NCBI RefSeq assembly: GCF_017348835.2
Contig: NZ_CP071375.1
Strand: one strand, 5' to 3'
Source of the DNA: Escherichia coli
Lineage (GTDB): Bacteria > Pseudomonadota > Gammaproteobacteria > Enterobacterales > Enterobacteriaceae
Length of the DNA stretch: 64,000 nt
Numbering within the stretch: the stretch's first letter is position 1; each line of letters opens with the position of its first letter. A model generated the notes under the pieces. That model saw only the letters and a list, made by a program, of their open reading frames with translations. It searched no databases and was not told where the DNA came from. Both the position numbers and the translations under genes were made by a program. Shown one piece after another: positions 14,734 to 17,037 of this stretch.

Positions 14734-16158
14734 ATGCAACATAAGTTACTGATTAACGGAGAACTGGTTAGCGGCGAAGGGGAAAAACAGCCTGTCTATA
14801 ATCCGGCAACGGGGGACGTTTTACTGGAGATTGCCGAGGCATCCGCAGAGCAGGTCGATGCTGCTGTGCGCGCGGCAGATGCAGCATTTGCCGAATGGGG
14901 GCAAACCACGCCGAAAGTGCGTGCGGAATGTCTGCTGAAACTGGCTGATGTTATCGAAGAAAATGGTCAGGTTTTTGCCGAACTGGAGTCCCGTAATTGT
15001 GGCAAACCGCTGTATAGTGCGTTCAATGATGAAATCCCGGCGATTGTCGATGTTTTTCGCTTTTTCGCGGGTGCGGCGCGCTGTCTGAATGGTCTGGCGG
15101 CAGGTGAATATCTTGAAGGTCATACTTCGATGATCCGTCGCGATCCGTTGGGGGTCGTGGCTTCTATCGCACCGTGGAATTATCCGCTGATGATGGCCGC
15201 GTGGAAACTGGCTCCGGCGCTGGCGGCAGGGAACTGCGTAGTACTTAAACCATCAGAAATTACCCCGCTGACCGCGTTGAAGTTGGCAGAGCTGGCGAAA
15301 GATATCTTCCCAGCAGGCGTGATTAACGTACTGTTTGGCAGAGGCAAAACGGTGGGCGATCCGCTGACCGGACATCCTAAAGTGCGGATGGTGTCGCTGA
15401 CGGGCTCTATCGCCACTGGGGAACACATCATCAGCCATACTGCGCCGTCCATTAAGCGTACTCATATGGAACTTGGTGGCAAAGCGCCAGTGATTGTTTT
15501 TGATGATGCGGATATTGAAGCAGTGGTCGAAGGTGTACGTACATTTGGCTATTACAATGCCGGACAGGATTGTACTGCGGCTTGTCGGATCTACGCGCAA
15601 AAAGGCATTTACGATACTCTGGTGGAAAAACTGGGTGCTGCGGTGGCAACGTTAAAATCTGGTGCGCCGGATGACGAGTCTACGGAGCTTGGACCTTTAA
15701 GCTCGCTGGCGCATCTCGAACGCGTCAGCAAGGCAGTAGAAGAGGCGAAAGCGACAGGGCACATCAAAGTGATCACTGGCGGTGAAAAGCGCAAGGGTAA
15801 TGGCTATTACTATGCGCCGACGCTGCTGGCTGGCGCATTACAGGACGATGCCATCGTGCAAAAAGAGGTATTTGGTCCAGTAGTGAGTGTTACGCTCTTC
15901 GACAACGAAGAACAGGTGGTAAACTGGGCGAATGACAGCCAGTACGGACTTGCATCTTCGGTATGGACGAAAGATGTGGGCAGGGCGCATCGCGTCAGCG
16001 CACGGCTGCAATATGGTTGTACCTGGGTCAATACCCATTTCATGCTGGTAAGTGAAATGCCGCACGGTGGGCAGAAACTTTCTGGTTACGGCAAGGATAT
16101 GTCACTTTATGGGCTGGAGGATTACACCGTCGTCCGCCACGTCATGGTTAAACATTAA
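14734..16158 (+). CDS. patD: PatD (YdcW) gamma-aminobutyraldehyde dehydrogenase
   Basis: 474-aa aldehyde dehydrogenase-family ORF directly after ydcSTUV. Confidence 0.92.
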
Positions 16159-16197
16159 GGATAATATTGCAGATCGTAAGAGTATGAGATGATCTTG

Positions 16198-16232
16198 CGT
16201 ACTGTCAGAGCACTGATTTCTCTGACAGTACG
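16198..16232. terminator. palindromic hairpin between convergent patD and yncL (candidate bidirectional terminator)
   Basis: 13-bp perfect inverted repeat cgtactgtcagag / ctctgacagtacg with 9-nt loop. Confidence 0.5.
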
Positions 16233-16254
16233 TGCTGCGTGCAAAATCACTACA

Positions 16255-16350
16255 TCAAATAAACCAGCCAAATCTCATAGAGATAAGAGTAAGCAAACCA
16301 ACAGCAGCAAAGACATTTATCAGTACTACAGTTCTACTGGAAACATTCAT
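16255..16350 (-). CDS. yncL: YncL small membrane protein (31 aa)
   Basis: Minus-strand ORF translating to MNVSSRTVVLINVFAAVGLLTLISMRFGWFI; below the ORF-track size cutoff. Confidence 0.75.
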   Translation of the reverse strand: MNVSSRTVVLINVFAAVGLLTLISMRFGWFI

Positions 16351-16544
16351 TTTTGCCACCTTTTATCATTGCCCCTATGTGTATAGTACGGGTTAAGAAA
16401 ATCCGCAATAATACTCATTCTGAAGATGGATAAGGGCAAGTTGCTGTTTGATGTTTTTTTCTCAAACCGGTTAAAAAACTTGATGCACGTCAAAAAATGA
16501 CGCATATTTGCGCGCGTTTTATTCATCTGGCTGGACGCCCGTAC

Positions 16545-16718
16545 ATGTCTCTCTATCAACACATGCTTGTTTTTTATGCGGTTATGGCAGCAATCGCATT
16601 TCTTATCACCTGGTTTCTTTCTCACGATAAGAAACGCATCCGTTTCTTAAGCGCCTTTCTGGTGGGGGCAACATGGCCGATGAGTTTCCCGGTGGCGCTG
16701 TTGTTTTCACTGTTTTAA
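16545..16718 (+). CDS. ortT: OrtT (YdcX) small membrane orphan toxin
   Basis: 57-codon hydrophobic ORF (MSLYQHMLVFYAVMAAIAFL...) inside the longer 16497 ORF. Confidence 0.75.
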   Translation: MSLYQHMLVFYAVMAAIAFLITWFLSHDKKRIRFLSAFLVGATWPMSFPVALLFSLF

Positions 16719-16803
16719 ATCTTACTCACTGGCTTGACGGCACCACGCAGACTTATATCATTTGGATAAATCGATAAATTTCACAAGTGGCTAAGGAGAA
16801 AGT

Positions 16804-17037
16804 ATGTCGCATCTGGATGAAGTCATCGCGCGCGTGGATGCCGCGATTGAAGAGAGCGTCATTGCCCATATGAACGAATTATTAATCGCCCTGAGCGATG
16901 ACGCGGAGTTAAGTCGGGAAGATCGCTACACCCAGCAGCAGCGTTTGCGCACCGCTATTGCTCATCACGGTCGCAAGCATAAAGAAGATATGGAAGCGCG
17001 CCATGAACAGTTAACCAAAGGCGGCACCATCCTGTGA
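16804..17037 (+). CDS. ydcY: YdcY small protein of unknown function
   Basis: 77-aa ORF at K-12-equivalent position. Confidence 0.8.
   Translation: MSHLDEVIARVDAAIEESVIAHMNELLIALSDDAELSREDRYTQQQRLRTAIAHHGRKHKEDMEARHEQLTKGGTIL

Follow-up and report, generated by a model that had tools for sequence, protein, structure and literature searches.

YncL has been described as a 31-aa single-helix inner-membrane protein that is induced in minimal medium, in stationary phase and upon heat shock, and whose production leads to membrane depolarisation and nucleoid condensation (PMC12542507). Its induction by stress and in stationary phase is credited, in the papers citing them, to Hemm et al. 2008 and 2010. 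YncL also belongs to the in vivo substrates of the protease RseP (PMC10470546), and the sRNAs KilS and RprA have the yncL mRNA among their partners. In Salmonella, the yncL transcript initially entered the catalogue of non-coding sRNAs as STnc1110; a yncL-lacZ translational fusion was expressed in a sigma-S-dependent manner, and the 3xFlag-tagged protein was undetected (PMC5437024). With regard to transcript 3' ends, Dar & Sorek 2018 (PMC6061677) described Rho-dependent transcripts that end precisely after stable, U-poor stem-loops, which protect them from PNPase and RNase II, and that are followed by mildly C-over-G sequence. A further class, bidirectional terminators (Ju et al. 2019; Wang et al. 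2022, bioRxiv 10.1101/2022.10.23.513370), is presented as Rho-independent and unlike intrinsic terminators, and is characterized by a U-less palindromic hairpin in the overlap of a convergent gene pair and by uniform 3' ends.

The locus studied here lies in a 64-kb stretch of Escherichia coli DNA, referred to as the window, and carries the annotated genes patD, yncL and ortT. An ORF at 16255..16350 (-), comprising 31 codons and a TGA stop (16255-16257) and starting with an ATG at 16350, is the catalogued small membrane-protein gene yncL. The encoded peptide, MNVSSRTVVLINVFAAVGLLTLISMRFGWFI, matches the NCBIfam equivalog NF000537 ('stress response membrane protein YncL') with 73.4 bits (cut-off 35, E = 9e-21), residues 1-30 aligning to a profile of 30 positions, and precomputed hits of yncL orthologues to the Pfam entry PF28073 (YncL) are on record. 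Residues 7-25 form the best 19-residue Kyte-Doolittle window, with a mean of 2.27, which suffices for one transmembrane helix. These data bear out the initial annotation in its reading of a 31-codon minus-strand ORF as yncL, encoding a hydrophobic single helix. Its remark that the gene had been missed by the ORF track holds only in a loose sense: the public annotation has yncL, and the ORF is merely short, being present in the list at 16255..16359 (-) as a 34-aa ORF with a GTG start. We dropped this longer version and preferred the ATG because the GTG falls within the Shine-Dalgarno sequence (AAGGTGG, 16356-16362 (-), 5 nt upstream of the ATG), and the start of Salmonella yncL was likewise assigned to the ATG and not the GTG (PMC5437024). 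The Shine-Dalgarno region, AAAGGTGGC, is kept in E. coli, Citrobacter and the more distant comparison locus L088.

The counterpart in E. coli K-12 is yncL b4598 at 1517099..1517194, K-12 MG1655 coordinates being obtained by adding a verified offset of 1,500,844 to those of the window. Compared to this gene, and to the entries represented by NF000537, PF28073 and Salmonella STnc1110, the window has the same gene and the same neighbours, patD and ortT, and the conserved Shine-Dalgarno sequence, sigma-S-type -10 element and 3' hairpin are all found in it. Across 410 bases compared with K-12 MG1655 there are five differences, none within the hairpin, and the two YncL proteins are identical at 29 of 31 residues, differing only by the conservative exchanges F13V and F20L (window 16314 and 16293). 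Both exchanges fall in or beside the transmembrane helix, and in Escherichia and Citrobacter the residue at position 13 is V, F, L or I. RefSeq annotates yncL in ~5,400 E. coli genomes, the identical sequence being annotated as well, and the 461 bases around the hairpin are 100% identical to strain PE164, with a match in 5,415 of 5,426 complete E. coli genomes. To examine the gene beyond the species, we compared 11 orthologues from E. coli, a second Escherichia genome, three Citrobacter, Superficieibacter and four other enterobacterial contigs. Where dS was estimable (it is saturated between genera), dN/dS ranged from 0.0 to 0.26, indicating purifying selection, and the 54 variable columns were distributed over codon positions 3, 1 and 2 as 27, 17 and 10. 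A search of representative proteins with YncL returned eight relatives at E<=1e-3, and within the 2.5-kb flanks inspected, yncL was found next to patD in none of the Enterobacter, Pseudomonas and other loci examined; the search returned no locus from Salmonella.

Upstream of yncL, a putative promoter at 16380..16408 (-) consists of a -35 element TTGCGG (16403-16408), a 17-nt spacer and a -10 element TATACA (16380-16385). This -10 element is preceded by a C, which yields CTATACA at 16380-16386 and includes the sigma-S-type extended -10 motif CTATAC. Judged by these motifs, CTATACA and the upstream TTGCGG likely constitute a sigma-S-type yncL promoter. The promoter region, GTACTATAC, is kept in E. 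coli, Citrobacter and L088, and a SELEX peak of the sigma-S holoenzyme has been reported within the yncL/ydcX spacer (PMC5493296). If the start deduced from this promoter is right, the yncL mRNA would measure about 180 nt up to its mapped 3' end. An Rfam scan of 15800-16900 at E<=1 gave no match, STnc1110/yncL being matched by no family.

The gene converges on patD, encoding gamma-aminobutyraldehyde dehydrogenase (14734..16158 (+), TAA at 16156-16158), and the 96-nt gap between the two stop codons harbours the inverted repeat CGTACTGTCAGAG / CTCTGACAGTACG at 16198-16210 and 16220-16232. As the initial annotation had stated, the repeat is perfect, all 13 of its 13 nucleotides being complementary across a 9-nt loop. 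The hairpin is separated from the patD stop by 39 nt and from the yncL stop by 22 nt. Seven of the 13 base pairs in the stem are G-C, and the RNA is predicted to fold with -21.6 kcal/mol in the yncL orientation and -23.8 kcal/mol in the patD orientation (z between about -3.3 and -3.6). The window contains no second perfect inverted repeat with a stem of 13 bp or more and a loop of 3-12 nt, and 40 composition-preserving shuffles yielded no comparable repeat. A REP or other repeat element was considered and ruled out, the region being single-copy with a median of one place per genome. In its 13-bp stem, its 7 G-C pairs, its stability of about -22 kcal/mol and its position soon after a stop codon, the element resembles a canonical intrinsic terminator; it differs in having a 9-nt loop and no U-tract on either strand, whereas orthologues at loci L088-L092 have the canonical form. 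The tails following the stem, CAAGATCATC on the yncL strand and TGCTGCGTGC on the patD strand, are devoid of a U-tract, and the longest U run in the yncL-strand sequence beyond the hairpin, CAAGAUCAUCUC, is 2. A consensus terminator scan made no call at the hairpin, the 9-nt loop exceeding the scan maximum of 8.

To address which of the two genes the hairpin belongs to, we aligned the yncL 3' UTR of seven Escherichia and Citrobacter sequences, a small sample that captures ~3 events. Of the cells representing 14 tested pairs (the 13-bp stem and one adjacent pair), 91.8% showed standard pairing, and three stem pairs were altered on both sides (GC<->CG, UA->CG and UA<->GC). One further change, AU->GU, maintains pairing solely in the yncL-sense RNA, and the loops are unrelated among the seven sequences, the loop being free to vary. 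In all yncL orthologues examined, the stop codon is followed by a hairpin at a distance of 20-60 nt. U-less hairpins follow yncL also in Superficieibacter and at locus L087, whereas L088-L092 have canonical terminators, with A-tract, GC hairpin and U-tract, 30-80 nt after yncL, at the place where Escherichia and Citrobacter are U-less. The terminators of L088-L092 are two-sided and common to yncL and a convergent gene, for example one encoding a Pmp3-family small membrane protein.

The arrangement of the neighbouring genes is more variable. In an insert haplotype that accounts for 1,140 of the 5,426 complete E. coli genomes (21%), ~1.3 kb separate patD from the yncL hairpin. Downstream of patD in these genomes come, in this order, a separate 11-bp patD hairpin with TCGTTTT, a gene for a CatB-related O-acetyltransferase and, ~1.3 kb further on, the yncL hairpin. 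The insert is found at L083 188-1500 and also at L085 and L086, and the acetyltransferase gene is frameshifted in O103 RM8385. In the insert strains the stem of the yncL hairpin is identical and the loop is different in some. In Citrobacter, patD and yncL are set apart by two genes, one for an MFS transporter and one of the AraC family, and the hairpin still accompanies yncL. The covariation of the stem, together with its retention beside yncL away from patD, argues that the hairpin belongs to yncL; on these sequence comparisons it is, in evolutionary terms, a yncL element and not one of patD. In the window, patD adjoins the yncL hairpin because this haplotype is without the 1.3-kb segment, and patD is left with no hairpin of its own. 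The description of the palindrome as shared with patD is therefore not upheld: the sharing is incidental, given that 1.3 kb and a separate patD hairpin intervene in 1,140 of the 5,426 genomes while the hairpin stays with yncL.

The 1.3-kb segment has ATTAAG at both flanks, and the window represents the fused form, with its junction at 16150-16165. Because the distal ATTAAG copy, ATATTAAGGATAAT, is also present beside the yncL hairpin in Citrobacter, the fused form looks like the product of a microhomology deletion. Such a deletion between the ATTAAG copies probably removed the patD-proximal hairpin and its T-run, a direction of change that we infer from the sequences. Two further arrangements were observed. 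Strain SY033 (L084 268-1496) has an IS3-family element between the hairpin and the yncL stop and thereby represents a natural hairpin-separation mutant. In E. albertii (L004 3922-4981), patD is followed by a canonical terminator, AGCTGGAATA...TATTCCAGCT and then ATTTTT, beyond which lie AT-rich DNA and a long ORF starting MTMVNKKLRRKA; no yncL is present within 1 kb of patD at this locus.

Since a perfect palindrome may also act as DNA, for instance as the operator of a dimeric regulator, as a cruciform or as a recombination hotspot, the RNA hairpin could in principle be a by-product. The repeat is perfectly symmetric, and the compensatory changes keep the symmetry of the DNA as well as the pairing of the RNA. 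The ATTAAG deletion/insertion junction is ~40 bp off, and the IS3 element in one strain inserted beside the hairpin. Furthermore, the half-sites TACTGT and ACAGTA look like LexA half-sites. We rejected a LexA box, however, as the spacing is 19 nt and not 8, and no CTGT-N8-ACAG occurs in 16101-16400. The palindrome is located downstream of both genes, away from promoters, the AU->GU change preserves pairing only in RNA of the yncL sense, and loop and arm sequences vary between genera with pairing retained. Considering also that an RNA 3' end maps at the base of the stem, as detailed below, we regard a function at the DNA level as highly improbable.

Published transcript-end maps place a yncL 3' end directly at the hairpin. 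In the Term-seq data of Adams et al. 2021 (PMC7815308, supplementary file 1), a 3' end is reported at 1517039(-), corresponding to window position 16195, in three conditions, with 75,265 reads in LB at OD 0.4, 536,300 reads in LB at OD 2.0, and an entry for M63. The printed 61-nt context of this end is identical to the window, placing the end 3 nt past the stem; owing to its distance of 60 nt from the yncL stop, it carries the tag 'antisense patD' in that table. In the TRS data (PMC10687069), the 'Primary yncL' terminus spans 1517026-1517043 and is dominated by positions 1517034/35 (window 16190/91), 7/8 nt past the stem; the identical fold is printed there with -21.6 kcal/mol and a maximum U-tract of 2. 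The 3' end at the hairpin is thus documented by two independent studies and at least five datasets, and the mapped steady-state ends cover 16190..16195 (-), 3-8 nt beyond the stem. An absence of 3' ends at the hairpin, which the initial annotation had named as evidence against its proposal, is not what is found, because the yncL-strand end maps there. The 13-bp stem and 9-nt loop at 16198..16232 (-) accordingly form the 3'-terminal stem-loop of the yncL mRNA, as indicated by stability, non-chance occurrence and covariation, and the complement of this stem-loop is present in the patD 3' UTR. Around this element, at 16186-16246 (-), a 9-bp lower stem (UGAUUUUGC / GCAAGAUCA) can lengthen the 13-bp stem across a 9-nt bulge on the yncL strand. 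The dominant TRS end coincides with the end of this lower stem, the Term-seq end falls within it, and a GATC in it is invariant across the seven-sequence alignment.

Transcription itself appears to continue beyond the mapped end. DirectRNA-seq in the presence of the Rho inhibitor bicyclomycin (BCM; PMC7815308, supplementary file 2) revealed a Rho termination region with its peak at 1516753(-), corresponding to window 15909. Coverage in the upstream and downstream windows was 220 and 9 without BCM and 106 and 72 with BCM, giving a Rho score of 16.6 (p = 5e-21), that is, ~16-fold more read-through past the hairpin (PMC7815308). This score is based on windows of 800 nt, and BCM is also able to expose antisense promoters within patD, so some of the BCM signal may have a source other than yncL read-through. 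The BCM-sensitive coverage indicates that polymerase passes the hairpin and is halted by Rho a few hundred nucleotides into antisense patD, delineating a Rho-stopped read-through stretch at 15909..16197 (-), antisense to the patD 3' end. Because BCM raises yncL read-through ~16-fold, Rho, acting downstream, and not the hairpin would do most of the stopping. In 78-nt windows along the yncL strand downstream of the hairpin, the C/G ratio ranges from 1.2 to 1.9, which is a mild bias compared to the window-wide median of 1.0 and the 90th percentile of 1.57.

A weak, non-canonical intrinsic terminator would account for part of these observations. In this scenario the hairpin, perhaps aided by NusA/NusG, would free some polymerases at 16190-16195 and Rho would clear the rest. 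The yncL 3' end is precise, very abundant and located 3-8 nt after a stable stem, and the canonical terminators at the same place in L088-L092 imply that termination right after yncL is ancestral. Against this stand the missing U-tract, with a maximum U run of 2, the consensus terminator scan, which made no call, and the coverage in BCM, which more than 286 nt downstream still amounts to 68% of that upstream. On balance, we consider intrinsic termination at this hairpin improbable. Instead, the lack of a U-tract on either strand and the rise in read-through upon Rho inhibition fit the U-less class of Dar & Sorek. With this class the yncL hairpin shares a stable stem-loop, a 3' end directly downstream, the lack of a U-rich tail and of an upstream A-tract, and BCM-sensitive read-through; the C-over-G bias downstream is mild, as in the description of the class, and may point the same way, while protection from PNPase and RNase II, a feature of the class, would apply to yncL by analogy. 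In the mechanism we propose, RNA polymerase would run through the U-less 13-bp hairpin into antisense patD, where Rho would terminate it on untranslated, C-over-G RNA. As suggested by the behaviour of the class, 3'-to-5' exonucleases may then trim the yncL RNA back to the hairpin, which would block them, and trimming against this block would generate the precise and abundant 3' end 3-8 nt beyond the stem. Taken together, we consider it probable that the locus comprises the known yncL gene and a yncL-owned U-less hairpin that sets the mRNA 3' end after Rho termination and exonuclease trimming. The hairpin should be read as the Rho-associated 3'-end stem-loop of yncL, and not as an intrinsic or a proven bidirectional terminator.

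The opposite strand gave a different picture. Neither Term-seq nor TRS contains an entry for a patD (plus-strand) 3' end or a Rho region in 1516800-1517350, patD possibly being poorly expressed in LB and M63. Sequence features of this strand are compatible with termination of a related kind: the patD-strand hairpin is stable (-23.8 kcal/mol), and the C/G ratio past it is 1.3-2.1 across ~160 nt, which makes a Rho-plus-hairpin 3' end for patD plausible. ExcludonFinder lists patD-yncL among 165 convergent 'excludons', with boundaries overlapping in at least 50% of 58 MG1655 transcriptomes. As this 'excludome' derives from RNA-seq coverage and a listing in it denotes overlapping transcript boundaries only, the overlap fits read-through and a shared 3' element equally well.

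These observations bear on a collision-type bidirectional terminator (Ju et al. 2019; Wang et al. 2022), an idea close to that of the initial annotation. According to this model, the hairpin would pause the polymerases of patD and yncL, and head-on and trailing collisions would release both, predicting overlapping 3' ends for the two genes independent of Rho or a U-tract. The locus has several of the expected attributes, namely a convergent pair with a U-less palindromic hairpin in the 96-nt gap and, at least for the yncL strand, a uniform 3' end; the class is set apart from intrinsic terminators, the pair is among the listed excludons, and the patD-strand form of the hairpin is the slightly more stable one. 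In contrast to the class, which is described as Rho-independent, the yncL locus shows a 3' end on one strand only, and yncL read-through is BCM-sensitive. A plus-strand 3' end at the hairpin is absent from the three Term-seq conditions and from TRS, and the hairpin is retained beside yncL where patD is 1.3-2.3 kb off and other genes converge. Termination by collision is therefore unlikely in our assessment, though it keeps more weight than the intrinsic scenario. With respect to the suggestion that the palindrome could terminate both convergent transcripts, the half concerning yncL is borne out insofar as its 3' end lies at the hairpin; termination of both strands there is argued against by the missing U-tract, the BCM-sensitive read-through of yncL and the lack of a listed patD-strand end.

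Further along the plus strand, Term-seq lists a weak 'orphan' 3' end at window 16513 (K-12 1517357 +), 32 nt upstream of the ortT start, with 848 reads and an intrinsic-terminator score of 3.18, and classified as not Rho-dependent. The end coincides with a small hairpin, ACGCATATTTGCGCGCGT (16500-16517), that has a T-run on both strands and could be an ortT leader or attenuator, or a stop for patD read-through. The program-made ortT ORF spans 16497-16718 (+) and comprises 73 aa from an ATG at 16497, and the annotated OrtT, of 57 aa, begins with the Met of MSLYQH inside this ORF (~16545); the 16 additional codons overlap both the hairpin and the orphan 3' end.

In sum, the locus appears ordinary and of little significance beyond housekeeping, and its reading as a bidirectional terminator is unproven. 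The yncL gene is already annotated and under study, and its 3' hairpin with the predicted fold is contained in a published table of transcript termini. What the present analysis adds is the reading of this hairpin as a Rho-associated 3' stem-loop of yncL, and the finding that contact with patD is limited to the haplotype without the 1.3-kb segment. A more far-reaching possibility, to which we assign a low probability, is that the deletion in the common haplotype fused the patD stop to the yncL hairpin such that a putrescine-catabolism gene and a sigma-S small-protein gene now share one 3' element. If true, the shared palindrome could function as a bidirectional 3' end of the collision type or of a two-sided Rho-plus-hairpin type, and the two genes could be subject to a mutual, excludon-like interference that is lacking in the 21% of strains with the insert. 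The two haplotypes would then lend themselves, as a natural pair, to studying whether and how a U-less hairpin is shared by convergent genes.
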